A stretch of 64,000 bases of DNA from Acidilobaceae archaeon. GTDB taxonomy: Archaea > Thermoproteota > Thermoprotei_A > Sulfolobales > Acidilobaceae. How positions within the stretch are numbered: position 1 is the stretch's first letter; each line of letters starts with the position of its first letter. The notes under the pieces were generated by a model that worked only from the letters and a program-made list of their open reading frames with translations, searched no databases and was not told the DNA's origin. Location of the stretch: contig JANXEI010000001.1 in assembly GCA_025058835.1 (NCBI GenBank), positions 42,311-106,310 of the forward strand, given 5' to 3'. Below are positions 10,189-37,647 of the stretch, piece by piece. A program made the translations under genes and the position numbers.

Positions 10189-10234
10189 GACCCTGAAGAA
10201 CTGGTCGAAGTATTGGGAGGTGACGGGAATCTGC

Positions 10235-10459: not shown

Positions 10460-10561
10460 GCTGCTCGCTCCTTTTGCAAGACCTACAGTCACAGGGAGCA
10501 CCTCATGGAGGAGCTCTTCTAAGCTTAAAAGGCATTTCGGGAGGGAGGGGGCGGAGAGGAG

Positions 10562-11311
10562 ATGGTATCGAGGATAGCTGTGGCAATAGCAGTAGCCTTT
10601 GCCCTCACCCTTATCTCCTCGGGGGCAGGGCTGTGGATATTCTACTCCCACATGTCGCCCCTCATGGGGCTTGCAGAGAAGAGGACCATGGGGCAGGTCT
10701 TGGACAGCTTCACCTACTTGAGGTACGAGCTGGTGATAAACGGGGAGAGCTATACGGTGGAGGTAAACAACGATCCCTCTGCAAGGAGGGGGACGGCAAC
10801 GCTCGTCTACCCTAACGGGAGCAGGGTGAGCTTTAGCTACAACTACACCTCTACCCTCGTGTTCCTCAGGAGGGAGGGGAGCAACGTCACCTTGAACCCG
10901 CTGCTCTACACAGAGGCCTTCGCCACCTCTCTTGTTATTGACACTGATCTTGGCAGAGTGGAGCCCTTCCCGGGCATAGCCCCCCTCTTTGCAGTGAACT
11001 TCTTGGGGAACGCTACCAGGATCGACTGGAGGTCTCTTTACGATCCGCGGGCAGAGGTGAGGCCCCAGAACGTAGTCTACGACTTCGAAACAGTGAAGCT
11101 GGGGAAAGAGGAGCGCAGGGGCGTCCTGCTCCAGATAGACGCCTTGTACTCTGGCGAGATGCAGAGGGCCCTGAAGTGGTACAGCGTCAGCTCCCTCGGC
11201 AAGCTGGCCAACAAGGAGGGGCTCGTGGTGGCGGGCGAGCTGACCCTGGAGTTCACTCTGGCAGGGACCCCCTACCTCGTGGAAATAAGGTTCGGGGAGC
11301 TGAGGAGGTAA
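10562..11311 (+). CDS. Hypothetical membrane-anchored/secreted protein
   Basis: 249 aa with an N-terminal hydrophobic segment (IAVAIAVAFALTLISSGAGLWIF) and several N-x-S/T sequons. No family recognised. Confidence 0.5.
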   Translation: MVSRIAVAIAVAFALTLISSGAGLWIFYSHMSPLMGLAEKRTMGQVLDSFTYLRYELVINGESYTVEVNNDPSARRGTATLVYPNGSRVSFSYNYTSTLVFLRREGSNVTLNPLLYTEAFATSLVIDTDLGRVEPFPGIAPLFAVNFLGNATRIDWRSLYDPRAEVRPQNVVYDFETVKLGKEERRGVLLQIDALYSGEMQRALKWYSVSSLGKLANKEGLVVAGELTLEFTLAGTPYLVEIRFGELRR

Positions 11312-12907: not shown

Positions 12908-15856
12908 CTAGATCAGGGTCTCCTCCAGGAGCTTTACGTATACCTGCGCGAGCCAGTCGTGGGCCTCCCTCTCTCCCTCCACGTCCATCCCGAACAACTC
13001 CTTCAGTACCAGCTTGTCCAGCTCGTAGCGAAAGCCCTCGCCCCTCCTGGCAGCCCGCAGCTGCTCCCTGAAAGTGCCGAGGCGTAGACGAGATTTCTCA
13101 TCGAAGAAGCGCAGGAAAGCTGACATAGCTGAGGGAGAGAGCCTCTGCTCGTCCACTAGGAGTAGCTTTGGGAGGGAGCTCTTGACGAAGTGGAGGTAGG
13201 AGCCGCTGCTGTCCTGCCGCAGGGAGAGGAAATGGAGGAGGCCCGGCGTGCTCGTTAGCCAGAGGGCCTGGAGCTTCGCTATCTCTTCGTCTTCCTTCGG
13301 GCTCGGGTGTAGGGGGACGGACCAGGCAAGGGGAGATATTAGGGGCTCCTTGTAGAAGAGGACGACGGTTCCAACGCTCTGCAGCCCCACCCTCCCTAGG
13401 CCAGCTACAAGGAGCCTGCCTGCCCTCCTGAGGCACCTCTCGTTAGTGCTCATGGTCCTTAGAACTCCCTCAGGGAGGGCTAGGCTGGAGAGCGCATCTC
13501 TGTTCAGGTTCCACAGGGACCTTGCCGTCCTGTCTCCCTTCACGCATATCTCCCTAAAGATCCTTGAGTCGTAGCCTGTCACCTCCTCCCACCCCTCGCT
13601 ATGCCGCGCAGATACGTATTGCGATAACGGCACAAGGGGGGCAGGAGGGGAGTGCTGGGGCTGGCTGAGGGAGAGGAGGAGCCTCTTGTTGAAGAAGAGC
13701 TCGAAGGCAGCGGCAGAGAGGAACGAGTCGTGGAAGCCCACTGCCACGTTGAGGTTGCCTGCGACGTGGGCTGCCCTCTCCATTACCTCTCTCTCAACAG
13801 AATATACGTACACAGCTGGCACCGGCTGCCCCCTCTCCTTGATCGCTATCGCCTCCGTGCGAGAGAAGCCGAGGGGGGCAGGCTCCAGCGATTGGGCAAC
13901 GCTCTTTATTGCCTTTGCGTACATCTCTGCCGCCGTCGAAGACTTCGGGAACTTCCTCACGTAAGCTACGGCAGTTCTATCCCTCTCTCGTGCCTTCTTG
14001 TACACCAGCAAGACCTCGCTGAGCCCCGTGTTCTCGCTCCACGCCCACTTGGCTGCGGGGTCGTCTGAGATAATCAAGTAGGGGAGGCTGCCTCTCCTCA
14101 TCAAAAACTCCCTTACGGGCGCCCAATCGGTGCCGCTGAGAAAGGTCCGCGGGAGCACTAGCGCAGCTACGCCCTCCTCCCTTAGCACCTTGTAGGCTAG
14201 AAGGGTGAAGTAAGTGCCTAGCCCCGCGCTCCCGAAGCCCGTAGAGAGGCCAAGGGAGAGCCGCATGGATCTCCCTAGCCTCGCCAGCTTCTCGAGGACC
14301 TCCCTCCTCTGAGCTTCGGGCAGGTGGCCGAAGAGGACGCCGCGGCCCGCATGGCCGCTCCTCACAAAGGGAGGGTTCATTATCACGAGGTCGAAGGGGT
14401 CCATAACGAGGCCCTCCGCCGAGGCCCTCTGCGCGGTAGCCTTAGTTGCTGATACGCTGTCCTCCCCGAAAGGGGTCTTCACGCGCGGGAACTTTACCTT
14501 CCCTTGCGAGACCTCTAGGCTGAGGGAGCCCAAGAAAGCCTCGCCCTCTACGACCCCCAGAGGCACCACGTACGTGTTAGTGTGGCTGACAGCTACGCTC
14601 GGCCTCCTCATGACGAGGGAAGCGGCGGTGAGGTGGACGGCGTGTTCTAGCACGTCGAAGCCGTACAGGACCTCCTCGAGCAGGGCCCTGTGGAGCTCGC
14701 CCAGCTGCTGTCCAGCGTGCTGGGGGGCACTAGCTATGAACCTGCTCATAACATCGCCGTAAACGGCCGACAGCAGCGTTCCGGAGCCGCATGCTAGATC
14801 GCCCACCCTGAGCTTCCTCACCTCCTCTACGCTCCCCCACTCCACTTTCAGCAGGTCCAGGGCGAGGGAGGAGAGGATCACGGAAGCGGGGATTGAGGTG
14901 TAGAAGGTGCCTAGCCCTTTGGCCAATTTCCTGAGCAGCAGCCGATGATAGAGCCTGCCCGCCAGGTCGTGCCTGAAAATGGCCTTCTTTGCAACTGCCT
15001 GGCTTGCCCTCCTAGAGAGCTCAAGCAAAATGGAGGAGACGGCATGGTGGGGAGGGAGGACCTTCACCGCCTTCCTCACGATCTCGAAGACTTGCTCGTA
15101 GTTCACCTCCCGGATCCTCTCCCACTGCTCCGCGAGCCAGCCTGCAGGATCTCCCCTGTCTATGGCGCGAAGTGGGGGGAGGCCGGGGACCGCGCCGGTG
15201 CTAGCCAGGGCCTCGTGGACTATCATGGCGTTGGTTATCATGAAGAGAAGGGACTTGGCCTTCGCCTCATCGCTCGTGCCCTCTTCTCGAAGCTCCAGCG
15301 CCTCCTCTGCTATCTTAGCAAGGCTCTCCAGTAGCCTTCCGTCCAGGTCGGAAACCAGTTGCAGGACCTTCATGATCTCCTTCGCTATCTCCTCCACGAC
15401 CTCCCTCTCCAGCAGGCTCTCGTATATGCTCCTCTTCTCTAGGATCTGAGCTAGGTCGGGAAGCTTCAGCCTCCCCAGATCCAAGGTCTCCAGGGGGGCC
15501 ACTATGCTCACAACGTGCTCTAGCTCCTTCAGCTTCTCCTCTGCTTCGCTCAGAGAGCGTGCAGCCCTCACCTCCTTGTGGTACGCTATGGCAATGCAGA
15601 GATCTGCAATCCCCTCCTCCAGCCTCTTGTTGCAATCTCTCTTAACCTCCTCCCCCTTCTCATGGCCCACCTTTGCTTCCACTATTACAGTGATCCCCAT
15701 AGCATCTATGAACATCCCATCAGGCCTGGCCCTAATGCCTCCCCTCGTGACCAGAGACTCGCCAAGCTTCGTGCGGAAATAGTCTGAGAGGAGGTCCTCC
15801 AGGATCCTCATCGTTATCGAGTTAATGCTCTGCTCGGCGGGAGTGCTCATCCGCAA
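12908..15856 (-). CDS. Type IIG-like restriction-modification fusion: N-terminal PD-(D/E)xK nuclease motif, gamma-class N6-adenine DNA methyltransferase, C-terminal putative specificity region
   Basis: 982 aa with RPDGMFIDAMGITVIVEAKVG (D...ExK), GTFYTSIPASV, motif I GDLACGSGTLL and motif IV VIMNPPF. About 450 aa lie after motif IV. Confidence 0.7.
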   Translation of the reverse strand: MRMSTPAEQSINSITMRILEDLLSDYFRTKLGESLVTRGGIRARPDGMFIDAMGITVIVEAKVGHEKGEEVKRDCNKRLEEGIADLCIAIAYHKEVRAARSLSEAEEKLKELEHVVSIVAPLETLDLGRLKLPDLAQILEKRSIYESLLEREVVEEIAKEIMKVLQLVSDLDGRLLESLAKIAEEALELREEGTSDEAKAKSLLFMITNAMIVHEALASTGAVPGLPPLRAIDRGDPAGWLAEQWERIREVNYEQVFEIVRKAVKVLPPHHAVSSILLELSRRASQAVAKKAIFRHDLAGRLYHRLLLRKLAKGLGTFYTSIPASVILSSLALDLLKVEWGSVEEVRKLRVGDLACGSGTLLSAVYGDVMSRFIASAPQHAGQQLGELHRALLEEVLYGFDVLEHAVHLTAASLVMRRPSVAVSHTNTYVVPLGVVEGEAFLGSLSLEVSQGKVKFPRVKTPFGEDSVSATKATAQRASAEGLVMDPFDLVIMNPPFVRSGHAGRGVLFGHLPEAQRREVLEKLARLGRSMRLSLGLSTGFGSAGLGTYFTLLAYKVLREEGVAALVLPRTFLSGTDWAPVREFLMRRGSLPYLIISDDPAAKWAWSENTGLSEVLLVYKKARERDRTAVAYVRKFPKSSTAAEMYAKAIKSVAQSLEPAPLGFSRTEAIAIKERGQPVPAVYVYSVEREVMERAAHVAGNLNVAVGFHDSFLSAAAFELFFNKRLLLSLSQPQHSPPAPLVPLSQYVSARHSEGWEEVTGYDSRIFREICVKGDRTARSLWNLNRDALSSLALPEGVLRTMSTNERCLRRAGRLLVAGLGRVGLQSVGTVVLFYKEPLISPLAWSVPLHPSPKEDEEIAKLQALWLTSTPGLLHFLSLRQDSSGSYLHFVKSSLPKLLLVDEQRLSPSAMSAFLRFFDEKSRLRLGTFREQLRAARRGEGFRYELDKLVLKELFGMDVEGEREAHDWLAQVYVKLLEETLI

Positions 15857-16545: not shown

Positions 16546-17552
16546 TACTCTCCCCTCACCTGCATCAGCTGCTCGGGCTTGAGGGTCCTGATGTCTATGC
16601 CCATCATGGAGGCCTTCTCCGAGATCATCTTCTGCGCCTCAGCCACGGTCTCTGGATCGTCGTAGTGAGTCGTTGCCAGCACTATTGCCCTAGCCCTCCC
16701 CTCAGGATCTTGGCTCTTGAATATGCCGGAGCCCACGAAGATCCCATCTGAGCCCAGCCACATCATGAGGGCCGCGTCTGCCGGAGTAGCTATGCCCCCT
16801 GCCGCAAAGTTCACCACGGGGAGCCTCCCTAGCCTCGCTGTGAGCAGGGCGAGCTCGTAGGGCACCTTGTTCTCCTTTGCATAAACCCATATGGCCTCGT
16901 AGTCCCCAGCGAGGTAGTAGCCCCTGAGGGTGGCTATGTCCCTGTTAACCAGCTTCATGTGCTTCACTGCCTCAGCAACGTTCCCTGTGCCGGGCTCGCC
17001 CTTTGTCCTGATCATGGCGGCCCCCTCGTAAATTCTCCTCAGCGCCTCCGGCAGGTTCCTTGCCCCGTTAACGAATGGCGTCTTGAAGTCCCACTTGTTT
17101 ATGTGGCTCCTCTCGTCCACTGGTGTTAGCACCTCGCTCTCATCTATCAGATCCACCCCCAGCTCCTCCAGGAGCCTTGCCTCCTCCCTGTGGCCTATCC
17201 TGCACTTTGCAGAGATGGGTATCGTGACGGCGTTAGCTATCGCAGCGATCACGTTCGCATCAGCTGTCCTAGCCACCCCCCCTGCCATCCTCACGTCGTA
17301 AGGCAGCTTGTCCAGGATCATTACCCCCACTGCCCCGGCGTCCTCAGCTATCTCTGCCTGCTTCTCGTTAGTTACGTCCATTATGACCCCGCCCTTGAAC
17401 ATGGAGACGAAGCCGAGCTTGACGAGGGGGGTCGCCTGCCTGATCCCCAGCCCCTCCTCCCTCCTCCTGTCCCTCTCCTCCAGCAGCTCGTAGATGAGCT
17501 CCTTCAGCCTCTCCACGTAAGCGTAACCGTCTACCAGTTTCACTCCCTTCAC
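16545..17552 (-). CDS. pdxS: Pyridoxal 5'-phosphate synthase lyase subunit PdxS
   Basis: 335 aa with [32 protein letters not shown] and [17 protein letters not shown] motifs. Confidence 0.9.
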
Positions 17553-19288: not shown

Positions 19289-19380
19289 TGCCGCCGCCGG
19301 GATTCGAACCCGGGACCTCCGGATTTCCCAGGCTGAGGCCGTATGAGTCCGGCGCTCTACCAAGGCTGAGCTACGGCGGC
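19289..19380 (-). tRNA. tRNA with CAT anticodon (elongator Met or Ile2) and a 17-nt canonical-position intron
   Basis: The reverse complement folds as GCCGCCG-TA-GCTC-AGCCTTGGTA-GAGC-G-CCGGA-CTCATA[intron]A-TCCGG-AGGTC-CCGGG-TTCGAAT-CCCGG-CGGCGGC-A. Confidence 0.85.
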
Positions 19381-19412: not shown

Positions 19413-20504
19413 TTAGAAGGGCTCGTCCAGCCTGGGCTCTGCCCGCTCCCCCAGCCTCTCCAGCCCAGCGTAGAGCATCCTCAGCGCCTCCATCTCGCTC
19501 CTCGCCTGCCTAGGCGGGTGCTTGAAGTAGAAGGCAGAGGCCCAGTCCAGGCTCCCCCTGAGGCCGTGATCCATTGCCACCTTTGCCACCCTTATCGCAT
19601 CTACCAGCACTGCGGATGCCATGGCCTTGTCGTCTACCTTCAGCCTCACCTCCACCTCCACCTCGCTCCCTGCAAAGGCAAGGGCCTTCAGGTAGATGTG
19701 GGAGACCTTGGTGTTCCCCAGGAAGGGCACATAGCCGCTTGGGCCTGCATAGACCCTCTCCTCCCTCACCACCTCCTCGGGCCTCTCCTGCGTGCTCGCC
19801 ACAGCCATGGTTTTGCTCTCCTTCTTGCTAGCCAGCCTCTCCCAGGCCAGCATGTTCTTGAAGTCCGTGTTCCCCCCCACGTTCAGCTGGTAGGTCTCGA
19901 GGAGCCTAGCTCCTCTCCAGCGCACCAGGCTTGCCAGGGCCCTGTGGACTGCAGTGGCGCCCAGCTGGCCCTTTATGTCGTCCCCGAGCACTGGGGCGGG
20001 GGAGGGGAAGCCCTTGCTGGCTATGAAGACCGGGATGGCGTTCACCAGCGCTGCTCCAGCCTGCGCTGCTGCAGCAGCGTAAAACCTGGAGGCCTCCTCG
20101 CTCCCCACGGGGAGGAGGTTGAGCAGCACCTCCACCCCTGCGTCCTGCATCTCCCTAGCCAGCTGGGAGAGGGTGGGCTCCTCTGCCCTTGCGGGCCTGA
20201 AGTCCTCTACCATGTGGGGGGCCACGCCGTCCAGCACCTTCCCCATCCTCACCGTCACGCCCCTCGCTACGGGCGCGAACTTCCTCACGCTGTTAGGGAA
20301 GGCGAAGATGGCCTCTGAGAGGTCCCTCCCCACCTTCTCCCTGGAAACGTCCACGGCATAGACGAACCTGATGTGAGCAACCTCGTACTTGCCTATCTTC
20401 TCGTGTATCAAGCCCTCTGAGCTCCCCAGGCTCCTGTAATACTCTACGCTCTGCACAAGCATGGCAGCAACGTTCCCTACCCCCACTATGCCCACGTTGA
20501 TCAA
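19413..20504 (-). CDS. myo-Inositol-1-phosphate synthase (archaeal type)
   Basis: 363 aa with an N-terminal Rossmann motif MINVGIVGVGNVA and a GGNTDFKNM motif. Length and layout fit archaeal MIPS. Confidence 0.65.
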   Translation of the reverse strand: MINVGIVGVGNVAAMLVQSVEYYRSLGSSEGLIHEKIGKYEVAHIRFVYAVDVSREKVGRDLSEAIFAFPNSVRKFAPVARGVTVRMGKVLDGVAPHMVEDFRPARAEEPTLSQLAREMQDAGVEVLLNLLPVGSEEASRFYAAAAAQAGAALVNAIPVFIASKGFPSPAPVLGDDIKGQLGATAVHRALASLVRWRGARLLETYQLNVGGNTDFKNMLAWERLASKKESKTMAVASTQERPEEVVREERVYAGPSGYVPFLGNTKVSHIYLKALAFAGSEVEVEVRLKVDDKAMASAVLVDAIRVAKVAMDHGLRGSLDWASAFYFKHPPRQARSEMEALRMLYAGLERLGERAEPRLDEPF

Positions 20505-20574
20505 GGCTCTCTCCTATTTACGGCCGTGAATATTAAGCCTTTTAGCTTTTTATGGCTGTAAACATCGGGGCGCT

Positions 20575-20886
20575 ATGGAGACGAAGGCTCTGGAGAGGCT
20601 GAGGAGGAAGATCACGCTGGAGAACCTCTGGATGTACGTGGTGAAGATACTTGCAGAGGAGGGGCCGCTCAGGGGGTACGAGGTGAAGAAGAGGCTGGAG
20701 GAGCGCTACGGCATAAGGCCCGCCACGGTAACGGCTTACGTGGTGCTCTACAAGATGAGCAGGGAGGGGCTGATAGAGGCCGTGAGCCTCGGGGGGGACA
20801 CCCTCTATAGGCCCACGGAGAAGGGGCTCAGGGCCCTGGAGGAGGCGAGGAAGATACTGGAGTGGGCTAGCAAGAGCATCTCATGA
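20575..20886 (+). CDS. PadR-family winged-helix transcriptional regulator
   Basis: 103 aa with LWMYVVKILAEEGPLRGYEVKKRLEERYGIRPATVTAYVVLYKMSREGLIE, which is a typical PadR core. Confidence 0.75.
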   Translation: METKALERLRRKITLENLWMYVVKILAEEGPLRGYEVKKRLEERYGIRPATVTAYVVLYKMSREGLIEAVSLGGDTLYRPTEKGLRALEEARKILEWASKSIS

Positions 20887-20892
20887 AGCTTG

Positions 20893-20911
20893 TTTATAAA
20901 TATCTGTAGCA
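20893..20911 (+). promoter_or_regulatory. Promoter: TATA box TTTATAAA + 5 nt + GTAGCA (copy 1, upstream of the wHTH gene)
   Basis: Exact string tttataaa-tatct-gtagca at 20893-20911. The same architecture recurs at 21324 and 22042. Confidence 0.6.
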
Positions 20912-20968
20912 GATTATACATGAATTTATTACCACTGGAGGTGGGTGTAATCGGCGGGTGCACATTAT

Positions 20969-21316
20969 GTGACTTCCCGAAGTCAGGAAGGTCCTGTGAA
21001 AACATCAACCCGCGAGTGCGAGAACGACTCTCCGGAGAGGAGCCTCCTCCGCAGCCTGTTCCTCAGCCTGGAGGACGACCTCCGCATGTCGGTGCTGAGG
21101 GTCCTGACAGAGAATAGCGGCGACGGCCTCTCCTTGAGGGGACTGCAGCGAAGGCTCAGGGTGAACCACCAGCGCTTGGCGAGGGCTCTCGCAGCCCTCG
21201 AGATGGGTTCCCTGGTGGAGGTGTCGCCGATGAAGGTGGAGAGCAGGGTATACAGGATGTACAAGCTGAGCGATAACACGAGGGAGGTCCTCGAAAGCCT
21301 CTTCCGCTGCCGCTGA
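20969..21316 (+). CDS. Small winged-helix (ArsR/TrmB-like) DNA-binding protein
   Basis: 115 aa with MSVLRVLTENSGDGLSLRGLQRRLRVNHQRLARALAALEMGSLVEV, an HTH plus wing pattern. The true start may be an internal Met. Confidence 0.55.
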   Translation: MTSRSQEGPVKTSTRECENDSPERSLLRSLFLSLEDDLRMSVLRVLTENSGDGLSLRGLQRRLRVNHQRLARALAALEMGSLVEVSPMKVESRVYRMYKLSDNTREVLESLFRCR

Positions 21317-21323
21317 ACGCCTG

Positions 21324-21342
21324 TTTATAAACTTTTGTAGCA
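21324..21342 (+). promoter_or_regulatory. Promoter: TTTATAAA + 5 nt + GTAGCA (copy 2, upstream of secreted paralog 1)
   Basis: Exact string tttataaa-ctttt-gtagca at 21324-21342. Confidence 0.6.
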
Positions 21343-21425
21343 AGCGCTAATTCTCTTTCTTCTCTTCCCGTTACCCCTACTCACAAAAGGAAAAACGTAA
21401 CGGCTGCTCCCTTTCTCGTGAAGCG

Positions 21426-21965
21426 GTGAGAGCGTTGAGAAGGCTCACAGCAGACAGGAGAGTCCTTGCTGCCATAGCTCTGCTAGGCCTCCTGCTGGTA
21501 GGGCTGGGAGCATACGCCATCTTCCGCGAGGTTCTCAGGGCGCCCATCCAGGTGGAGACGGGTAGATTTGACTTCGACATTCAAAATGTAGAGATAGAGG
21601 AATTCGCTGGAAACCAGCCTGAGAACCCAAACATTGCCGAGTGTACCTACTCCATAGCGCCGAACGGCAAGATCGTGCAGATCAGCATATCCAACGCTTA
21701 CCCAGGGTACCGGTGCGAGATCACCCTAGTCTTCATCAACGACCCTGCGGAGAGCAGCATCCCTGGTAGGTTCGAGGCGAGGCAAGTCATAGGGAGCCCG
21801 GCTGACTGGCTAAGCATTACCTATCAAGACCCCGATCCAAACGTCATGATTGTCGAGGGTGGCACGGCCCAGGCAAAGATTATAATAGAGGTTACGGCTC
21901 AAGCTCCGGAAAACGGGAGCAGCAGCTTCACGGTTGATTACACGTTCCGCCAGTACCTGCCCTAA
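21426..21965 (+). CDS. Secreted protein, paralog 1, with TasA/camelysin-like (SipW-type signal plus beta-sandwich) features
   Basis: Signal anchor LLGLLLVGLGAYA then IFREVLRAPIQVETGRFDF, followed by NAYPGYRCEITLVFIND and C-terminal FRQYLP. Clearly paralogous to 22095..22661. Confidence 0.6.
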   Translation: MRALRRLTADRRVLAAIALLGLLLVGLGAYAIFREVLRAPIQVETGRFDFDIQNVEIEEFAGNQPENPNIAECTYSIAPNGKIVQISISNAYPGYRCEITLVFINDPAESSIPGRFEARQVIGSPADWLSITYQDPDPNVMIVEGGTAQAKIIIEVTAQAPENGSSSFTVDYTFRQYLP

Positions 21966-21996
21966 AGCCCTCCTCTAACGTCCCCCAAGCCCCTCC

Positions 21997-22004
21997 TTTT
22001 TCTT
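21997..22004 (+). terminator. Oligo-T stretch downstream of paralog 1 (archaeal-type terminator candidate)
   Basis: tttttctt lies 32 nt after the stop codon and before the next promoter copy. Confidence 0.35.
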
Positions 22005-22041
22005 GCATCTCCTTCAGCAACTCCCGAGAGCCCTCCAGCTC

Positions 22042-22060
22042 TTTATAAAGGCCCGTAGCA
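22042..22060 (+). promoter_or_regulatory. Promoter: TTTATAAA + 5 nt + GTAGCA (copy 3, upstream of secreted paralog 2)
   Basis: Exact string tttataaa-ggccc-gtagca at 22042-22060. Confidence 0.6.
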
Positions 22061-22094
22061 CCAGCTCCCAGAAGGATATATTAAAGTGTAGTGT

Positions 22095-22661
22095 ATGAGC
22101 GCAAAGACACTTCCCTATCTTCCTCCCCTTACTATGCGACCAGCCATGAAAGAGGTAAGAAACAAGAGGCTAGTCCTGGCAGGCCTGGTGGTGCTGGCCC
22201 TGCTCCTGGCAGGCACGGCAGCCATCGCCATTTTCCAAGAGACACTCAGGGCATTAATAAACGCGCAGACGGGTAACTTCGACATAGTGCTCGCGGGCTT
22301 CACAATGACGGTTGACAACGAGCCTCCAGATGGCCCAAACATCGCTAGCTGTTCAGCCTCGCTCAACAACAACAACCCTAGGGAGGTCTCAGTTCTGATA
22401 CAAAACGCATACCCAGGATACAGTTGTAAGGTCAGCATATTTGTGGTAAACACAGGTACCATTCATGCAAGGTTCGAGAATTACAATGTTGATCCCAGCA
22501 GTCCTGCCCTGTCAGTTGAGATTTTGCAAGCCCCTGCCGGTCCAATAGCTCCAAATAACCAGGCCCCGGTAGATTTTAAAATCACCGTAACGAACCAGGC
22601 GGTGGAGAACGCTCAGTACAGCGTCACCCTAAATCTCGTCTTCAGGCAGGCCCTACCATAG
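22095..22661 (+). CDS. Secreted protein, paralog 2, TasA/camelysin-like
   Basis: LALLLAGTAAIA then IFQETLRALINAQTGNFD, followed by NAYPGYSCKVSIFVVNTG and C-terminal FRQALP. The start may be an internal Met (MRPAMKEV). Confidence 0.6.
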   Translation: MSAKTLPYLPPLTMRPAMKEVRNKRLVLAGLVVLALLLAGTAAIAIFQETLRALINAQTGNFDIVLAGFTMTVDNEPPDGPNIASCSASLNNNNPREVSVLIQNAYPGYSCKVSIFVVNTGTIHARFENYNVDPSSPALSVEILQAPAGPIAPNNQAPVDFKITVTNQAVENAQYSVTLNLVFRQALP

Positions 22662-22688
22662 CAGCCTTAGCGGCATCTATAACCTCTC

Positions 22689-22694
22689 TTTTTT
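22689..22694 (+). terminator. Oligo-T stretch downstream of paralog 2
   Basis: tttttt lies 28 nt after the stop codon. Confidence 0.35.
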
Positions 22695-22784
22695 CCCTCC
22701 TCTTCTGCTTGTACTTATACCTCCTGTCGCGCTTGTCGCAGCTCCTTTTTACCATTGGAGCGTGAGCTTAGCTTGTGAGGAGAA

Positions 22785-23225
22785 ATGTCCCCCCCGAGAT
22801 TTGCGTTGGTACTGGCAGCAATGGCCCTCCTCTCCCTCCTCTCTGCCTCCCTCTTCCACGAGACCCTCTCAGCCTCCTTACAGGCCAGCATAGGCTACAT
22901 CAACGTTAGACTACAGAACGCCGTGGTGGTGGAGGGAGTAAACGTGTGCACCGTAACCGAGGTGAGCGACGAAATAGTCTATGTGGACGTGAACGGGCAG
23001 AGCGGTGATGAGTGCGTCATTGAAGTAGTCGCGCAAAACAGCGGCACCGTGCCTGCCCGGCTGAGCGGAGTGGATTCGGGCGTTGAAGAAGTTCAGGGCG
23101 AGAATGTGGAAGATGGGACTGTGCTCCCCGGTAGCTCTGGAACGGTGAAGTTCCGCCTGAAGTTCCTTCAAAACTATCAGGGTACAGTTGAGGCATTCCC
23201 CCAATTTGTCATGGGACCGCCGTAA
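22785..23225 (+). CDS. Secreted protein, divergent paralog 3 of the same family
   Basis: The signal LLSLLSA then SLFHETLSASLQASIGYINV parallels IF(R/Q)E(V/T)LRA...TG.F of paralogs 1 and 2. It also has DECVIEVVAQNSGTVPARL. Confidence 0.5.
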   Translation: MSPPRFALVLAAMALLSLLSASLFHETLSASLQASIGYINVRLQNAVVVEGVNVCTVTEVSDEIVYVDVNGQSGDECVIEVVAQNSGTVPARLSGVDSGVEEVQGENVEDGTVLPGSSGTVKFRLKFLQNYQGTVEAFPQFVMGPP

Positions 23226-23370: not shown

Positions 23371-26300
23371 GTGGCCCCCGTGATCCAGGCCATATACAAA
23401 GGCCTCTGCCCCAACTGCGGAGGTCCCATAAGCTATGGGAGGCTCCAGAAGGGCCTCCCCTGCGAGGCCTGCCTGCCGGAGGAGGACAGCAACTACCTGG
23501 CAGCCCTCGAGAGGAGGGGGAAGCTGGAGGGCCTCTCCTGGCTGAAGCTGCTCAAGAAGGAGCACGAGGAGTTCCTCTCCTTCTTCCGCTCCTCCCTCGG
23601 CTTCGAGCCCTGGGGAGCTCAGGAGAGCTGGGCCAAGAGGCTCCTCATGCTGGAGAGCTTTGCCATAATAGCCCCCACGGGCGTGGGGAAGAGCACGCTG
23701 CTCATTGCTTACGCAGCCTTCAGGGCTAGGCGCGGCTGGAGGGTCCTCTACCTCGTGCCCACCGAGAACCTTGCCAGGCAGGTGCAGGAGAGGCTGAGGA
23801 AGATGTGCCCGGGGGCCCTGGCTTACTACTCGAGCCTCCCCAAGAGGGAGAGGGAGGAGGCCCTCTCGAGGATAAGGAGGGGGGAGCTGAAGGCCCTCGT
23901 GACCACCACGAGCTTCCTGGAGAGGAGGGCGCACGAGCTCCCCCTCTTCGATCTGGTGATCGTGGACGACGTGGACAGCCTGGTGAGGGACAGCAAGAAC
24001 GTGGACAGGGTGCTCAAGGCCATGGGCTTCAGGGAGGAAACCATAGCAACGGCAACGGAGCTGGTGAAGGCCAGGATCAGGCTGAGGAGGGCGAGGGCTG
24101 CAGGGAGCAGGGAGGAGAGGCTGGAGCTCCTCGTGACTGAGCTGGAGGGGAGGCTGAGGAGGCTCCTGGAGGGGGAGAGGGGCGGCCAGCTGGTGGTTGC
24201 CTCAGCCACCGGCAGGCCCAAGGGCTACAGGCACCTGGTCTTCAGGGAGCTCCTGAACTTCGAGGTGGGGGGAGGGGGGGACTACATCAGGAACGTGATA
24301 GACAGCTACTCCCCTGCCGGAGATGTTGTGAGCATAGTGAAGCAGCTGGGCAAGGGGGGAATAGTGTTCGTGAGCCAATATCTGGGCAAAGGAGCCATGG
24401 AGCAGATCTTGTCGCGCCTGGAGAGGGAGGGGGTTAGGGCGGCAAAGGCCCTGGCGGGTTCCTGGAGGGGCGTGCTCCAGCTGGAGAGGGGGGAGGTGGA
24501 TGTGCTAGTAACCGTAGCCAGCAGGTACGGCGTTGCCGTGAGGGGCCTCGACGCGCCGAAGAGGGTGAGGTACGTGCTGTTCCTGGGCGCCCCTGCCAGG
24601 AGGCTCCGGCTGGAGGAGGCCCTCTCCTCCCCCATGCGCCTCCTGCGGCTCCTCCTGCAGGCAAAGGAGGAGGGGAGCCAGGAGGGCACAGAGCTCGCAA
24701 GGGAGCTCGTGAAGCTGCTAGAGAGGGTGGAGCCTGAGGCCCTCTCGGCAGCGCTGAGGGAGGGGAGCGCAGAGGGGGCCCTCGGGAGGGCCGTGGAGCT
24801 GCTCAGGAGGGCAAAGGCCTGGGCAGTAGGCTGGGCAAGGGAGAGGTTGGGGGAGAGGGGGGAGATGAGGGTGGGCACCATGCTCATAGCGCGGGAGGGG
24901 GAGCTCTACGTTTACGTGCCAGACGCGCTGACCTACCTCCAGGCCAGCGGGAGGGCCAGCAGGCTCCTCGAGGGGAGGATGACGCTGGGGCTGAGCGTGG
25001 TGGTGGAGCCGCGGGAGGAGCTGGTGAAGGGCCTGGAGGCAAAGCTCAGGGCCTTTGCTGACGTGAAGTTCTCCAGGCTGGAGGAGCTGGATCTGGAGGA
25101 GGTGAAGAGGGGGCTGGAGGAGAGCAGGCAGGGCAGGGGGAGGGAGCTGAGGGTCAAGACCTGCCTGCTCGTGGTGGAGTCCCCCACCAAGGCGAGGACC
25201 ATAGGCTGGTTCTGGGGGAGGCCTGGGAAGAGGAGGGTGGGGAGGCTCACCGTCTACGAGACCTCCTACCTGGACGGGGAGAGCATAACCATCCTCCAGG
25301 TAGCTGCCACGCGGGGCCACCTCTTCGACCTCGTGGAGGACGAGGAGGGCACCAGATATGGGATAATAGTGAGGGAGGACTCCTACTTGCCGATATATGG
25401 CAGCATAAAGAGGTGCCTCTCCTGCGGAGCCCAGTTCATCTCAGCCCCCCGCTGCCCCCGCTGCTCCTCTGCTGAAGCTACAGACTCCATGGCTACAGTG
25501 GAGGCTCTCAGGAGGCTTGCGCTAACCGTGGACGAGGTGGTCGTAGCTACCGATCCAGACAGGGAGGGGGAGAAGATAGCTATGGACGTGGCCCTCTCCC
25601 TCAAGCCATATGCTAAGGCAGTGAGGAGGGCCCGCTTCTACGAGGTGTCGCGGAGGGAGATCATGAGGGCCATCAGGGAAGCAGGGGAGATAGACGGCAA
25701 GCTGGTGGAGTCGCAGATGGCGAGGAGGATAGCAGATAGGTGGATAGGCTACTACCTCAGCTCCTACCTCAAGGAGGCCTACGGGAAGGAGTGGCTGGGG
25801 GCTGGGAGGGTGCAGACGCCGGTGCTGGGCTGGGTAGTGGAGAGGTACAAGGAGTGGGGGAGCAGCCAGCTCTACCGCGCATGCCTGAAGCTGTCCACCG
25901 GCTACAGGTTCTGCCTCCCCTTCCAAGAGAAGAGGGAGGCAGAGAGGGCAGCCCTCTCGCCATATGTGCTGCTAGAGGAGGTGAGGAGGGAGGAGGTAAC
26001 GTTGAGCCCTCCCGCGCCCTACTCCACCGATTCCCTCCTCTACGATGCCTCGGCAAAGCTAGCCCTCAGGGTGGAGCTGGCAATGAGGCTAGCTCAAGAC
26101 CTCTTCGAGGCCGGGCTGATCACCTACCACAGGACTGACTCCGTGAGGGTTTCCCCGCAGGGGATAGAGATAGCAAGAGCATACCTCTCCCAGAGGGGCA
26201 TGGAAGAACTGTTTAGGCCGAGGGGGTGGAGCGAGGAGGGGGCTCACGAGGCAATAAGGCCCACCAGGCCTCTGGATGCAGAGTCCCTGGACAAGGCTGT

Positions 26301-26895
26301 GGCTGAGGGGGCCCTTAGGCTGAACCTGAGGCTCACCGAGAGGCACAGGGCGCTCTACGACCTCATATTCCGGCGCTTCGTGGCGAGCCAGATGGCAGAG
26401 GCTAAGGCAATCAGGGCAACGCTCGTGGTTGATGTAGAGGGCACAAAGGCGAGGCTGGAGGTCCTCGCAGCCCTCCCCCAGCCGGGCTTTGCCTCAGTGC
26501 TGGGCATGAGGCTCGAGCCCTGGGCCCTCCAGCTGAGGGGAGGGGAGAGCCTGGAGGTGGCAGAATCTAGCGTGAGGAGGGGGAGCTCTGCTCACCTCTA
26601 CACGAGCGGGGAGGTGGTGAGGCTCATGAAGGAGAGGGGCATAGGGAGGCCCAGCACCTACTACAAGGCCATAGAGGCGAACAAGAGGCACGGCTATGTG
26701 GTGGAGAGCAAGAGGAGGGGAGCCCTGGTGCCAACCAAGATGGGGGTGCAGGCTTACGAGCTCCTGAGGAGCAGGTTCCCCCACCTCACCTCGGAAGCCT
26801 TCACCAGCAAGCTGGAGGAGAAGCTGGACCTCGTGGAGGGGAACGGGCTGAGCGCTAAGGACGTGCTGAGGGAGCTGTGGGACTCCCTAGCCTAG
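23371..26895 (+). CDS. rgy: Reverse gyrase
   Basis: 1174 aa with an N-terminal Zn finger CPNCGG...CEAC, helicase motifs APTGVGKST and VIVDDVDS, TOPRIM LLVVESPTKARTIG, an inserted CLSCG...CPRC finger and a type IA topoisomerase domain. Confidence 0.95.
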   Translation: MAPVIQAIYKGLCPNCGGPISYGRLQKGLPCEACLPEEDSNYLAALERRGKLEGLSWLKLLKKEHEEFLSFFRSSLGFEPWGAQESWAKRLLMLESFAIIAPTGVGKSTLLIAYAAFRARRGWRVLYLVPTENLARQVQERLRKMCPGALAYYSSLPKREREEALSRIRRGELKALVTTTSFLERRAHELPLFDLVIVDDVDSLVRDSKNVDRVLKAMGFREETIATATELVKARIRLRRARAAGSREERLELLVTELEGRLRRLLEGERGGQLVVASATGRPKGYRHLVFRELLNFEVGGGGDYIRNVIDSYSPAGDVVSIVKQLGKGGIVFVSQYLGKGAMEQILSRLEREGVRAAKALAGSWRGVLQLERGEVDVLVTVASRYGVAVRGLDAPKRVRYVLFLGAPARRLRLEEALSSPMRLLRLLLQAKEEGSQEGTELARELVKLLERVEPEALSAALREGSAEGALGRAVELLRRAKAWAVGWARERLGERGEMRVGTMLIAREGELYVYVPDALTYLQASGRASRLLEGRMTLGLSVVVEPREELVKGLEAKLRAFADVKFSRLEELDLEEVKRGLEESRQGRGRELRVKTCLLVVESPTKARTIGWFWGRPGKRRVGRLTVYETSYLDGESITILQVAATRGHLFDLVEDEEGTRYGIIVREDSYLPIYGSIKRCLSCGAQFISAPRCPRCSSAEATDSMATVEALRRLALTVDEVVVATDPDREGEKIAMDVALSLKPYAKAVRRARFYEVSRREIMRAIREAGEIDGKLVESQMARRIADRWIGYYLSSYLKEAYGKEWLGAGRVQTPVLGWVVERYKEWGSSQLYRACLKLSTGYRFCLPFQEKREAERAALSPYVLLEEVRREEVTLSPPAPYSTDSLLYDASAKLALRVELAMRLAQDLFEAGLITYHRTDSVRVSPQGIEIARAYLSQRGMEELFRPRGWSEEGAHEAIRPTRPLDAESLDKAVAEGALRLNLRLTERHRALYDLIFRRFVASQMAEAKAIRATLVVDVEGTKARLEVLAALPQPGFASVLGMRLEPWALQLRGGESLEVAESSVRRGSSAHLYTSGEVVRLMKERGIGRPSTYYKAIEANKRHGYVVESKRRGALVPTKMGVQAYELLRSRFPHLTSEAFTSKLEEKLDLVEGNGLSAKDVLRELWDSLA

Positions 26896-29193
26896 CTCTA
26901 CCACGCTCCTCGTGCCGGCCTTGGAGACCCTGATCACCCTATCTGCCCTCTCCTCCACCTCCTCGTCGTGAGTGATAACGATTATCTGCTGGAGGGAGCC
27001 GGCGAGCCTCGGGATGATCTCGAAGATCTTTTCCCTCGCCTCCTCGTCCAGGAACTCTGTGGGCTCGTCCAATATCATGGCGTCTATGGGCACCCTCAGC
27101 GCCCTCGCCAGCCCTAGCCTTATGGCTATGGCTAGCATAGTCCTCTCCCCTCCGCTGAGGGACCTCACGTCCAGCTTCACATCTCCGCCCCTCGCCCCGC
27201 TCCTGATCACCACTATGTCGAACTCCTCGCTCACGCTCACCCAGAAGTCCCTGCCCAGCACCCTCAGTATCTCGTTCACGTGGCTCTCCAGAGCGCCTCG
27301 GAGCTCCCTCGTAAGCTCCCTCGCCAGGAGGCCGTCCTTTCCCAGCACATCGTCCACAAGCACAGAGACGACCTTGAGGAGCTCCCTCTTCCCCTCTGCC
27401 GCAAGTATCTCTGCCTCCATCTGCGAGATCTCCGCGCTCAAGGCCTTCACCCTCTCCCTGAGCCTCTCCACGCTCCCCCTCAGCTTGCCTGCCTCCTTTG
27501 CGGTCTCCAGGACCCTCTTCTCCGCCTCCCCCTTCCTCGCCCTCTCCTCCTTCAGCTCCTTCTCCAGCTCCGCGAGGCTCCTCGAGGGCTCCTCCGGCAG
27601 CGCTAGCTCCCTTAGCCTCTTCTCCAGCTCCTCCCTCTTCACCTCCAGCTTTTCCCTCTCCTTCAGCTCCCCCTTTGCCCTCTCCAGCGGGCAGTCGCTT
27701 GCCCTTGCCAGCTCTAGCCCGTAAAGCGCGGCCAGCTCGCTGCAGGAGCTCATGAAGGCGGCAAGCTTCTCCCTTGCCCTCTCCCGCTCCTCCCTCGCCC
27801 TCGCCAGCTTCCTCGCTATTTCCTCCCTCTCTGCCCTCTTCTCCTTCTCCGCAGAGATCCTCTTCAGCTCCCTCTCGAGCGCCGCCATCTCCTCCTCGAT
27901 CTTCCTCACCCTCTCCCTCTTCTCCTCAGCTATGCGGTGAGCCCTCTCTGGCGAGAGGGGGCTGCCGCAGAGGGGACACCTATCTGTCAGGACCGCCGGC
28001 GTGAGGGCAGAGAGGAGCTTCTTCTCTGCTGAGAGCTCGCCGAGCCTCCTGGAGAGGTCCTTCTCCACCTCTGCTAGTGCGTCTTGCTGCAGGCGCTGCA
28101 GGGCCTCCTCTACCCTCCTCGCCCCCTCCAGCCAGGCGCTCTCCCAGCCCCTGTCGTCCTCTAGCCAAAGGGCCCTCAGGAGCTCCCGCAGTCCCAAAGA
28201 CTTCCCTCTCCCCAGCACCTGCTGGAGCAGCTCTTCCCTCACGATCCCCTTGCCGCGGAGGGCCTCTGCTGCCTCCTTCTCTGCCTTCTGGAGGAGCCCG
28301 AGGGAGAACTCCAGCTCGTTCCTAGCCCTCTCTACCTTCTCCACGAGCTCTTTGTGCTCTGGCCCGAGGGGGATGCTAGAGATCTTTGCTAGGACCTCCC
28401 CCAGCTCCCTCTCTACGCTTCGCTTCTCCTCCCGCTTCCTCGCTAGCTCCACCGCCCTCTCAAGCTCCTCCACCCTCTTCCTGAGCTCCTCCAGCTCCTG
28501 CTGTGCCCTCCTGGCCTCCTCCTCGAGCAGGTGCAGCCTCTGCTCCTCCTCCTTCAGCCTCTTCTCCTCTTCTGCCATCTCCCTCTTCTTCTTTGCCATC
28601 TCCTTTGCCCTCTCCTCCGCCCTATTCACAGCGGACTCGAGATCATTGAGCTCCTTCCTCAGGCTCTCCCTCAGCTCCTCTAGCCTCCGAAGGCCTGCGA
28701 GCTCCAGCACCACCTCCTTCCGCTTGGAGGGGGCGAGCTCTACTATGTCAGCCAGATGACCCTGCCTAGAGATCATGGTAGCTGTGAGCACTGCCATGTT
28801 GTCCTTCCTTATGCCCAGCAGCTGGGTGAGCCTGTTGCAAACCTCCTCCTCCCCCTCCGCGACCAGCTTGCCGTCCTCGTAAAGCTTGGCCTTCGGCTGG
28901 AGGGAGCGGGAGGTGTCGAGCACCCTCTCCACCCTGTACTCCTTCCCCCTCATCTCCAGCCATACCCTGACCTCGCCCCTGCTCTCCCCTGCCCTGATCA
29001 TGCTGGCCAGGGTGTTCCTAACGACCTCCTCTCCCTTCTTGCAGGTGCCAATGGTGGCGAGGAGGAGCGCGTCCACTATGGTGCTCTTCCCGCTCCCGTT
29101 AGCCCCCACTATGGCGTTGATGCCCTTCGTGAACTCCACAGCCCCCCTGTCGTAGGACATAACGTTGTAGAGCTCCACCCTCTTCACGATCAC
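26887..29193 (-). CDS. rad50: DNA double-strand break repair ATPase Rad50
   Basis: Walker A GANGSGKST, a long coiled coil, zinc hook CPLCGSPL, signature LSGGERTM and Walker B ILDEPT. Confidence 0.9.
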   Translation of the reverse strand: MIVKRVELYNVMSYDRGAVEFTKGINAIVGANGSGKSTIVDALLLATIGTCKKGEEVVRNTLASMIRAGESRGEVRVWLEMRGKEYRVERVLDTSRSLQPKAKLYEDGKLVAEGEEEVCNRLTQLLGIRKDNMAVLTATMISRQGHLADIVELAPSKRKEVVLELAGLRRLEELRESLRKELNDLESAVNRAEERAKEMAKKKREMAEEEKRLKEEEQRLHLLEEEARRAQQELEELRKRVEELERAVELARKREEKRSVERELGEVLAKISSIPLGPEHKELVEKVERARNELEFSLGLLQKAEKEAAEALRGKGIVREELLQQVLGRGKSLGLRELLRALWLEDDRGWESAWLEGARRVEEALQRLQQDALAEVEKDLSRRLGELSAEKKLLSALTPAVLTDRCPLCGSPLSPERAHRIAEEKRERVRKIEEEMAALERELKRISAEKEKRAEREEIARKLARAREERERAREKLAAFMSSCSELAALYGLELARASDCPLERAKGELKEREKLEVKREELEKRLRELALPEEPSRSLAELEKELKEERARKGEAEKRVLETAKEAGKLRGSVERLRERVKALSAEISQMEAEILAAEGKRELLKVVSVLVDDVLGKDGLLARELTRELRGALESHVNEILRVLGRDFWVSVSEEFDIVVIRSGARGGDVKLDVRSLSGGERTMLAIAIRLGLARALRVPIDAMILDEPTEFLDEEAREKIFEIIPRLAGSLQQIIVITHDEEVEERADRVIRVSKAGTRSVVELG

Positions 29194-30332
29194 CTGCCCT
29201 TCGCCTCCAAAGCCTTCCCGAGCCGGAGCAGCAGAGCCCTGTCCCTCTCCAGCTCTCCCAGGAACTCCTTCGCCCTCTCAGGCTCCTCCAGGAGGGCCAT
29301 CATTGCCTTCACAAGCCTCTCCTCCTTGAGGAGCCTCCTCACGACCTCCTCTAGGGAGAGCCGCTCGCCCCATGACCTCTCCACCTTTAGCTGGACCGTC
29401 GGCTGCTGCTCGTATCTATAGGTGAGCACCTTCTTCCCCTTCAGCAAGGAGCTCAAGAGATCCTCTATCCTCCTCCTCCCCACCGAGGTGCCAGAGGTTA
29501 TCTCCACGTACACTATGGGAGGGTCGCCCTCCCGCTGCCGGAGCCCCTCGAGCTGCCTCACTATTTCCTCCTCCTTCCCCTTCAGGTAGACCCAAGGCCT
29601 TGCCCCCTTCAGCTTCACCCACTGCACCTCCACCTCTCCCCCTCTCACCTCCCCGAGAACCGCGTACCTGTTGCTCTCCTCCAGGTACTCGCTCACAGAG
29701 GAGAACTCTGTGGCGCCCGGGTACACTACCTTCATCCCCCCTATCGTTCTCTCCCAACGGGCGTGGAGGTCTCCTAGGGCAACGTAGGCGTAGCCTCGCG
29801 GTATCCTCTCTGCCCACCACCCGCTCTCGCATCTAGCCGGAGCTCCCGTCACATCGCAGAGGAGCAGGTGGGCCAGCGCTATCTTAACTCTCCCCCCTGC
29901 AGCCCTCAGCTGATCCTCTATGAACAGGTTTCCCGAGGCCCAGCTGGAGTATACCAGGAGGGAGACGTCGCCGAGCGTGAAGACGGAGGGCTTCCAATAG
30001 TCTTCGGGAGACTTGAGGAGCTCAATCTCATGCAGCACCCTCACGGGCGAGCCCTTTGACTCGCTCTTCGGCAGCTCGTGGTTGCCGGGAGCGATGAAGA
30101 ACTTGATGCCCTTCTCCTTCAGCCGCTTAAGCTGCACAATGGCTTCCCTGTAAGCCTTCGGCGATGGGTTGGAGGAGTGGAACAAGTCTCCCCCGTGGAG
30201 CACCGCGTCCACCCTCTCTTCCAAGGCTATGTCTATTACCTCCTTGAACGCCTTGTAGAAGTCCTGCTCCCTCTCCAGGAGGCCGTAGTGCCTATAGCCG
30301 AGATGCGTGTCTGAAACGTGAAGGAACCTCAA
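29190..30332 (-). CDS. mre11: DNA double-strand break repair nuclease Mre11
   Basis: MRFLHVSDTHLG, GGDLFH and GNHE phosphoesterase motifs; 4-nt overlap with rad50. Confidence 0.9.
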   Translation of the reverse strand: MRFLHVSDTHLGYRHYGLLEREQDFYKAFKEVIDIALEERVDAVLHGGDLFHSSNPSPKAYREAIVQLKRLKEKGIKFFIAPGNHELPKSESKGSPVRVLHEIELLKSPEDYWKPSVFTLGDVSLLVYSSWASGNLFIEDQLRAAGGRVKIALAHLLLCDVTGAPARCESGWWAERIPRGYAYVALGDLHARWERTIGGMKVVYPGATEFSSVSEYLEESNRYAVLGEVRGGEVEVQWVKLKGARPWVYLKGKEEEIVRQLEGLRQREGDPPIVYVEITSGTSVGRRRIEDLLSSLLKGKKVLTYRYEQQPTVQLKVERSWGERLSLEEVVRRLLKEERLVKAMMALLEEPERAKEFLGELERDRALLLRLGKALEAKGR

Positions 30333-37616: not shown

Positions 37617-37630
37617 AAGAAACTATCACC

Positions 37631-37647
37631 CCATAGGAAACTGAGGG
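37631..37647. promoter_or_regulatory. Single ORB-like element upstream of orc1/cdc6
   Basis: ccataggaaactgaggg resembles, from memory, crenarchaeal origin-recognition-box cores (CCA-N-N-GGAAAC followed by a G-run). Only one copy was seen. Confidence 0.3.

Follow-up and report, generated by a model that had tools for sequence, protein, structure and literature searches.

Three tandem genes of an Acidilobaceae archaeon encode probable AbpX-like fibre subunits of the TasA superfamily

Positions 20575 to 23225 of a 64,000-nucleotide stretch of archaeal chromosome (contig JANXEI010000001.1 of the Acidilobaceae archaeon assembly GCA_025058835.1, positions 42,311 to 106,310; the whole stretch is hereafter called the window) carry five genes on the forward strand, namely two small regulators, here termed PadR and reg2, followed by three genes, par1, par2 and par3, whose products are labelled 'hypothetical' in public records. 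We propose that par1-par3 encode secreted members of the AbpX clade of the TasA superfamily, which most likely form fibres by N-terminal donor-strand complementation, a reading that we hold to be quite probable. AbpX is a biomatrix protein of Pyrodictium abyssi described in a January 2026 preprint (bioRxiv 10.64898/2026.01.04.697558). According to this text, mature AbpX polymerises in a chaperone-free manner through complementation by an N-terminal donor strand, with three Ca2+ ions reinforcing the interaction and the fibrils forming a lattice, and the AbpX clade of the TasA superfamily extends over the Thermoproteota, Bacillota and Chloroflexota (10.64898/2026.01.04.697558). The three genes are as follows:

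21426..21965, + strand: par1, an AbpX-like subunit of 179 amino acids (176 if it starts at TTG 21435), assigned by profile matches and an AlphaFold2 model
21426-21518 and 21519-21563, + strand: parts of par1, respectively the signal peptide and the predicted donor strand I-F-R-E-V-L-R-A-P-I-Q-V-E-T-G, which are followed by the beta-sandwich core
22146..22661, + strand: par2, an AbpX-like subunit of 171 amino acids, with 37% identity to par1 and a family hidden Markov model (HMM) score of 154.8 bits
22785..23225, + strand: par3, a shorter, divergent AbpX-like subunit of 146 amino acids, assigned by hhalign, column comparison and an ortholog in another Acidilobaceae genome

The three paralogs and their relationship to AbpX

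The initial annotation of the region, made from the sequence, had read the three genes as consecutive paralogs, and this is borne out by par1 and par2, which are related at a BLASTP E of 2e-22, and by par3, whose pairwise similarity is weak (BLASTP E 0.013) and which is matched by a profile of par1, par2 and two orthologs, with par3 itself left out, at an hhalign probability of 92% (E 6e-7). The columns invariant in all three comprise the F, E, L and G of the N-terminal stretch, two cysteines, and the N...G of the NAYPGY block. Par2 attains the highest family-HMM score in the window, and its mature form begins I-F-Q-E-T-L. In par3, NAYPGYxC reads NGQSGDEC, D18 is replaced by N and the E of the EN motif by Q, with F2, E4 and the amphipathic strand kept; its ortholog in a second Acidilobaceae genome (locus L002, below) shows 48% identity. 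Open reading frames are found at all three of the originally annotated positions, with changes proposed at two of the starts. The par2 frame reaches upstream to ATG 22095 (188 amino acids), but its start is most likely ATG 22146, because both the annotation of the metagenome-assembled genome (MAG) and the orthologs begin there. For par1, TTG 21435 is a possible start, with a GGTGA Shine-Dalgarno-like site ahead of it, and the ATG of par3 is preceded by a GAGGAG Shine-Dalgarno-like site.

In all three proteins a basic n-region leads into a hydrophobic segment some 18 residues long, followed by a small-x-small site, read from the sequence as AYA/IF, AIA/IF and SA(S)/LF (the slash marking the predicted cut), and each is predicted to bear a Sec-dependent signal peptide cleaved by a type I signal peptidase (SPase I). 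The layout given by the initial annotation, together with its AYA and AIA sites, is retained here, but the LSA site that it gave for par3 is replaced by probable cleavage after SAS, which brings par3 into register with the family. A twin-arginine translocation signal, suggested by the RR of par1, was rejected, as the RR is not kept in par2, par3 or the orthologs. The signal is followed by the conserved stretch x-F-x-E-(T/V)-L-x-A-x-(I/L)-x-(V/A)-x-(T/I)-G.

None of the three window proteins has a Pfam or NCBIfam match at E<=1, a single-sequence search of the PDB with par1 gave a chance match only, and a word-based homolog search with par1 recovered only a 98%-identical MAG ortholog; the family becomes visible by exhaustive profile search. 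A profile of the three paralogs alone, compared with PDB sequences, recovered AbpX (9SJ2_C) at E 3e-6 and also 9RHP_A, annotated as 'Archaeal bundling protein X', with TasA not matched at E<10. An exhaustive HMMER search with this profile yielded 589 cluster representatives at E<=1e-3, 72 of which make up the family alignment and profile used throughout. Their consensus reads ...YA/xWxETLxIxGxVxTGxxDV...NAYPGY...NxGTIPVK...AxEN..Y.F...FxQxN, and the 72-member profile matches AbpX at E 1.4e-19, sc-AbpX at 7e-14 and Bacillus subtilis TasA (5OF1, 8AUR) at about 1e-3. Likewise, a profile of the Acidilobaceae subfamily aligns with AbpX at an hhalign probability of 94% (E 1.4e-7) over 117 columns with about 21% identity. 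The family also aligns with full-length TasA at an hhalign probability of 93%, using a TasA sequence that agrees with the PDB fragments. This alignment pairs the end of the signal peptide, A/xFxD of TasA with A/xWxE, and NLKPGD...NNGS with NAYPGY...NxGT, so that both parallels to TasA drawn in the initial annotation, that of the mature N-terminus and that of the NAYPGY block, reappear in it.

Matches to curated models come from distant family members and are weak: TIGR04088 (SipW-dependent-type signal) is matched by 19/72, Peptidase_M73 by 14/72 (best PF12389 E 1.5e-4), TIGR04090 by 7/72 and the TasA model by 3/72. Thus TIGR04088 and Peptidase_M73, to which the initial annotation had pointed, reach such relatives but not the window proteins. 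Its TasA/camelysin-like assignment likewise holds at the level of the TasA superfamily, but the nearest described relatives belong to the AbpX clade and are neither TasA or camelysin proper nor the AbpA pilin of Pyrobaculum.

P. abyssi AbpX, solved both as a fibril (9SJ2) and as a self-complemented monomer (9RHP), is the best sequence match among solved structures. In the clade the second residue of the mature protein is characteristically aromatic and the fourth acidic, and the isoelectric point (pI) is low (10.64898/2026.01.04.697558). F2 and E4 are present in all three paralogs, and their hydrophobic residues at 6, 8, 10 and 12 lie in register with the buried W2, L6, L8, A10 and I12 of AbpX, which places the donor strand in the same register. 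The mature pI is 4.24 for par1, 4.53 for par2 and 4.12 for par3, as low as in the family. The shared features further include a mature size of about 145-165 amino acids and the TGxxD, (N/K)AYPG, NxGTIP and EN motifs. Both have a cysteine pair, that of AbpX being predicted in the preprint to be disulfide-competent (10.64898/2026.01.04.697558), but in the alignment it does not coincide with the pair conserved in the window proteins. Besides the low identity, the window proteins differ from AbpX in using F instead of W as the aromatic clamp, a substitution seen in 15/103 aligned family sequences including the Acidilobaceae paralogs and orthologs, and in ending with FRQxLP rather than FxQWN. Furthermore, where AbpX is encoded by a single gene in a member of the Pyrodictiaceae, the Acidilobaceae locus has three tandem paralogs and two regulators.

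An AlphaFold2 model of par1 computed with the family alignment has, for the full-length protein, a pLDDT (predicted local distance difference test score) of 92.4 and shows eight strands behind a helix at 11-32. The mature form is modelled at a pLDDT of 94.8 and a predicted template-modelling (TM) score of 0.85, with residues 1-18 devoid of secondary structure and then eight strands; the N-terminus of the AbpX monomer is likewise without secondary structure (10.64898/2026.01.04.697558). Foldseek searches of the PDB with the full-length model, which includes the signal helix, gave uninformative matches, none at E<1e-3. The mature model gave weak matches to donor-strand pilins (E 5e-3 to 0.2, TM-score at most about 0.4), the top of the list comprising CfaB, CS17, FimA/G/I, Caf1, the Sulfolobus Saci_0406 thread (probability 0.96) and the Hyper2 cannula-like tube.

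The likeness to B. subtilis TasA (5OF1, 8AUR; PF12389, TIGR04088) is that of a shared superfamily with a motif-paired alignment, and TasA fibres too form through donor-strand insertion (10.64898/2026.01.04.697558). TasA differs in being about 100 amino acids longer with extra insertions, and the tapA-sipW-tasA operon provides an assembly factor and a peptidase of its own, both missing here. Other archaeal donor-strand fibres belong to the same superfamily, and one of them, 7PNB, is the best superfamily match by Foldseek (rank 4, probability 0.96, TM-score 0.39), but no sequence match to them was detected from the paralog or family profiles; they fall into separate clusters, farther from TasA than AbpX is (10.64898/2026.01.04.697558).

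The locus, its promoters and its regulators

The genes lie in the order PadR, reg2, par1, par2, par3 between an inositol-1-phosphate synthase gene and the reverse gyrase gene. Over 20500-23000 the GC fraction is 0.51-0.58 against 0.59-0.69 in the flanks, in agreement with the initial impression that the region is richer in AT than its surroundings. The regulatory features and the divergent neighbour are:

19413-20504, - strand: inositol-1-phosphate synthase gene, divergent from the PadR gene
20575..20886, + strand: PadR-family winged-helix regulator of 103 amino acids (PF03551, E 2e-7; score 31.3 bits, cutoff 27)
20888..20911, + strand: promoter repeat copy 1 (GCTTGTTTATAAATATCTGTAGCA), repeat family D1, ahead of reg2
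20969..21316, + strand: reg2, a small winged-helix (ArsR/MarR-like) regulator of 115 amino acids from GTG 20969, assigned by weak Pfam/NCBIfam matches
21319..21342, + strand: promoter repeat copy 2, family D1, ahead of par1 and followed by a leader of about 95 nucleotides
21997..22001, + strand: oligo-T run after par1, resembling an archaeal terminator, read from the sequence
22037..22060, + strand: promoter repeat copy 3, family D1, ahead of par2
22689..22694, + strand: oligo-T run after par2, read from the sequence

A repeat finder recovered the D1 family as a TATA-containing 24-nucleotide repeat with three copies, upstream of reg2, par1 and par2 respectively. The 64 kb contain its core, TTTATAAA-N5-GTAGCA, at three places (20893, 21324 and 22042), all of them in the cluster, against an expectation of 0.07 occurrences. 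As each of reg2, par1 and par2 has a copy of this one TATA-plus-GTAGCA module, these genes are probably transcribed separately and yet co-regulated. The separate promoter copies of par1 and par2 and the oligo-T stretch behind each were correctly seen in the initial annotation. A second TATA-like box, ATATATTAAA-GTGTAG, precedes par2 at 22076-22091 and is kept in two related Acidilobaceae loci (L002 and L003, below), in which the TATA-N5-(G/A)TAGC element and the leader block CACAAA(A/G)GGA(A/G)AA are also conserved. The par1 leader is unusually long (about 95 nucleotides; 21343-21425) and contains the conserved block CTCACAAA(A/G)GGA(A/G)AAAC and the GGTGA Shine-Dalgarno-like site; the corresponding regions are 9880-10000 in L002 and 9815-9916 in L003.

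Three other Acidilobaceae MAGs (L001, L002 and L003) carry the block of five genes in synteny. The identities to L002 amount to 75-86% for the flanking genes, 95% for PadR, 55% for reg2 and 43-55% for the fibre genes, and this disparity between the fibre genes and both their flanks and PadR indicates that the subunits evolve fast, as surface proteins often do. The L002 orthologs of par1 and par2 (9998-10522 and 10734-11231) are 76% identical to each other over their first 118 residues, against 37% between par1 and par2 of the window, which suggests gene conversion between the L002 paralogs in the N-terminal two-thirds. In L003 a fourth, divergent AbpX-like gene (7152-7685, - strand) is flanked by a CBS-domain gene on one side and the inositol-1-phosphate synthase gene on the other; the window has no counterpart at that position.

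The initial annotation had placed two small regulators ahead of the cluster, and both assignments stood: PadR passes the Pfam cutoff, and reg2 is a small winged-helix protein which matches MarR_2, HTH_20 and ArsR at E 1e-3 to 7e-3, all below the cutoffs. In the MAG annotation reg2 has 106 amino acids, corresponding to a start at GTG 20996. BLASTP homologs of reg2 (35-39% identity, E 1e-10 to 1e-13), one of which matches HTH_24/HTH_5 at E 4e-9, sit in the abpX loci of a Desulfurococcales MAG (L004) and a Thermoproteota MAG (L005), so that reg2 is a regulator which accompanies abpX genes across orders. It is likely to be the dedicated transcription factor of the fibre genes. In the abpX promoters of L004 (about 9890-9930 and 16870-16920) and L005 (about 840-870) the TATA box is shortly followed by GCTACA, the reverse complement of the TGTAGC box of the window, and then by CTGCACAT or CAGCACAT; this box may be a common operator for reg2-type regulators, or its recurrence may be due to chance.

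PadR is the first gene of the syntenic block and shows 93-95% identity in two other Acidilobaceae species, the fibre genes of which are at 41-55%. It does not occur in the canonical abpX loci L004 and L005, and is thus peculiar to the Acidilobaceae arrangement of the locus. The 20505-20574 intergenic region between it and the inositol-1-phosphate synthase gene is almost invariant in the same two species, and a near-perfect palindrome, TATTTACGGCCGTGAATA, lies within it at 20515-20532. PadR may regulate the divergent synthase gene, which belongs to compatible-solute synthesis, instead of the fibre genes, a possibility raised by this nearly invariant, palindrome-bearing intergenic region common to both.

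L004 and L005 have the canonical layout, as does, for example, the locus of Zestosphaera tikiterensis in the preprint (10.64898/2026.01.04.697558), and share tandem AbpX-like paralogs and a homologous winged-helix regulator with the window. In them two or three AbpX-like genes are accompanied by a tip-like gene with a longer product (373-438 amino acids) and by the reg2 homologs, and the loci in addition encode a multi-transmembrane Peptidase_S26 signal peptidase (407-414 amino acids), a DUF5305 protein and a small conserved protein. The latter (121-147 amino acids; L004 15782-16147, - strand; L005 3361-3804) carries a GWAW(I/V)G motif, is without a Pfam match, and was not found mentioned in the accessible part of the AbpX preprint. 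When the peptidase, DUF5305 and small proteins of these loci were compared with the window by tblastn, only matches at E>0.4 were obtained, and the multi-transmembrane open reading frames of the window have no S24/S26 domain in Pfam scans. The initial annotation had noted that no signal peptidase gene is adjacent, and the tblastn comparison extends this to any homolog of the abpX-linked peptidase in the whole window. Minor-subunit-like paralogs, in contrast to these accessory genes, are present in the window locus in the form of par2 and par3. A 249-residue protein with an N-terminal transmembrane segment (10562-11311, + strand) and a 474-residue protein with ten transmembrane segments (11435-12859, - strand), both without a Pfam match, form a pair conserved in L002 at 71-73% identity; they were considered as a peptidase and its accessory and rejected, having no S24/S26 or DUF5305 signal and no similarity to the proteins of L004 and L005.

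A model for assembly and the alternatives to it

Based on these features we propose that the precursors would be exported by Sec, and that a general type I signal peptidase would cut them after the small-x-small site (AYA, AIA or SAS). Cleavage would free the N-terminal amphipathic strand, with F2, E4 and the hydrophobic residues at 6, 8, 10 and 12, which could then slot into the groove that stands open in the next subunit's beta-sandwich, thereby complementing it as a donor strand. The outcome would be thin extracellular fibres, and bundles of these could make up a matrix in a biofilm or at the cell surface. Of the three proteins, par1 and par2 would act as full subunits and par3, a reduced variant, probably as a minor subunit. 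Transcription of reg2, par1 and par2 would start from their separate copies of the promoter module, probably under the control of reg2.

Several observations weigh against this proposal. Foldseek gave no PDB match at E<1e-3, and both TasA and AbpX lie outside the top 50. The initial annotation had looked to structure prediction for a TasA fold: the all-beta model is indeed confident, but it finds only weak pilin matches and TasA is not listed, and therefore the assignment rests on profile homology. The window also lacks the multi-transmembrane SPase I, the DUF5305 protein and the tip-like subunit of the canonical loci. Par2 is much less acidic than the other paralogs, with 7.7% Asp plus Glu against 13.5% in par1 and 12.9% in par3 (clade reference: pI about 4, Asp/Glu about 15%). 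Finally, of the calcium ligands at the strand/groove interface of P. abyssi AbpX, namely D18, D46, D48, E52, E4 and E142 (the E of the EN motif), D46, D48 and E52 are absent here, being replaced by S/A/K in par1 and L/N/R in par2. E4, D18 and E142 are kept in par1 and par2, and par3 keeps E4 only. Loss of these ligands as a lineage-specific trait was considered and is weakened by the variability of positions 46, 48 and 52 across the whole family, in which K is the commonest residue at 52; hence the sequence does not tell whether assembly depends on calcium. Coordination of calcium is not a universal trait (10.64898/2026.01.04.697558).

The absence of the accessory genes leads to the alternative that par1-par3 are family members of a satellite kind, minor subunits which are processed and incorporated by a canonical locus elsewhere in the genome that supplies the major subunit, the tip, the ten-transmembrane signal peptidase and DUF5305. 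L004 and L005 do combine two or three AbpX-like genes with the longer tip-like protein, Peptidase_S26 and DUF5305; most archaeal loci are canonical (10.64898/2026.01.04.697558); and several paralogs including a divergent par3 would suit minor subunits. Nevertheless, the reduced five-gene block is kept in four Acidilobaceae genomes, the family HMM finds only these three members within the 64 kb, and a word-based public protein search of limited sensitivity with the L005 peptidase gave no Acidilobaceae-labelled match. P. abyssi AbpX, moreover, forms fibres alone from a similarly minimal locus without a dedicated peptidase (10.64898/2026.01.04.697558). We accordingly consider such a satellite role unlikely. 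The proteins might, on the other hand, be secreted or surface beta-sandwiches that do not polymerise, such as S-layer-associated proteins, adhesins or CARDB-like domains, with the N-terminal stretch being part of the fold or a sorting signal. This would agree with the weak CARDB matches of 9/72 family members, the likewise weak matches of some members to choice-of-anchor D and DUF11-type Ig-like domains, and the appendage and Ig-like sandwiches among the Foldseek matches. It appears improbable given that the closest solved relative polymerises via exactly the N-terminal strand conserved here, that F2, E4 and the alternation of hydrophobic residues all retain their register, and that the N-terminal 18 residues lie outside the sandwich in the monomer model.

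The helix that precedes the beta-sandwich in the full-length model, together with the weak matches of 9/72 family members to the UpsA pilin model, recalls type IV pilins, in which class III processing by a prepilin peptidase would leave the hydrophobic N-terminus in place to serve as the helix of the pilus core. This is very improbable, since no [KR]-[GAS] prepilin motif precedes the hydrophobic stretch, the small-x-small site is instead at its end, and the solved AbpX begins directly after that site; neither a pilus ATPase nor a platform or prepilin peptidase gene is found nearby. There is hardly any case for camelysin-type (Peptidase_M73) secreted metalloproteases: the weak PF12389 matches of distant family members do not extend to the window proteins themselves, and the family alignment shows neither HExxH nor a comparable metal site. 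PF12389, moreover, is the TasA family, with a structural role now established.

A bolder version of our proposal would make the locus a self-sufficient, accessory-free fibre system specific to the Acidilobaceae. In it three separately transcribed subunits would enter one heteropolymer with a Phe clamp instead of Trp, the K/R at the E52 position would pair with the incoming E4 for calcium-independent assembly, and a reg2-type winged-helix switch would act via the TATA-proximal GTAGCA box. We see this only as an outside chance; if it were true, calcium-independent assembly might reflect adaptation to acidic hot springs. The AbpX family as such is already described in the January 2026 preprint (10.64898/2026.01.04.697558), and what is new here are its Acidilobaceae members and not the kind of system. 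The particulars of the locus, i.e. the Phe clamp, the FRQxLP C-terminus, the three paralogs, the lack of accessory genes and the repeated promoters, are all within what the preprint allows, as P. abyssi itself has a minimal locus (10.64898/2026.01.04.697558).

Genomic setting and implications

The region described here is about 98% identical at the protein level to a contig of the Acidilobaceae archaeon MAG GCA_026414065.1. The genes of the window include those for reverse gyrase (23371-26895), Rad50/Mre11, NurA/HerA and Orc1/Cdc6, and beside the inositol-1-phosphate synthase a mannosyl-3-phosphoglycerate synthase is encoded. In the segments 26887-30332 and 36381-42259, Rad50-Mre11 and NurA-HerA are about 9 kb apart, and the gap contains an MFS transporter, a methylase, tRNAs and Orc1/Cdc6 (36381-37616), beside which origin-type repeats were looked for with nothing convincing found. 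Two methylase-type proteins of 982 and 1053 residues (12908-15856, - strand, and 31870-35031, + strand), one Eco57I-like and one N6_Mtase, bracket the region and are possibly fused restriction-modification enzymes. Two long Rfam tRNA matches, of 92 nucleotides at 19289-19380 (- strand) and 100 nucleotides at 37738-37837 (+ strand), are probably intron-containing; ARAGORN identified the former as tRNA-Tyr with anticodon ATA and missed the latter. A VKOR-family protein, a disulfide-forming oxidoreductase, is encoded at 42326-42769 (PF07884, E 6e-14), and is compatible with the conserved cysteine pair of the secreted subunits.

The placement of par1-par3 in the AbpX clade carries the recently described thermostable, self-assembling biofilm fibres into the Acidilobaceae. 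Proteins of this type have been proposed as heat-stable hydrogel materials (10.64898/2026.01.04.697558). The compact five-gene module, with its conserved, probably dedicated regulator and repeated promoter element, could give access to the regulation of archaeal matrix fibres, and might also serve in testing whether their assembly requires calcium or a dedicated signal peptidase.

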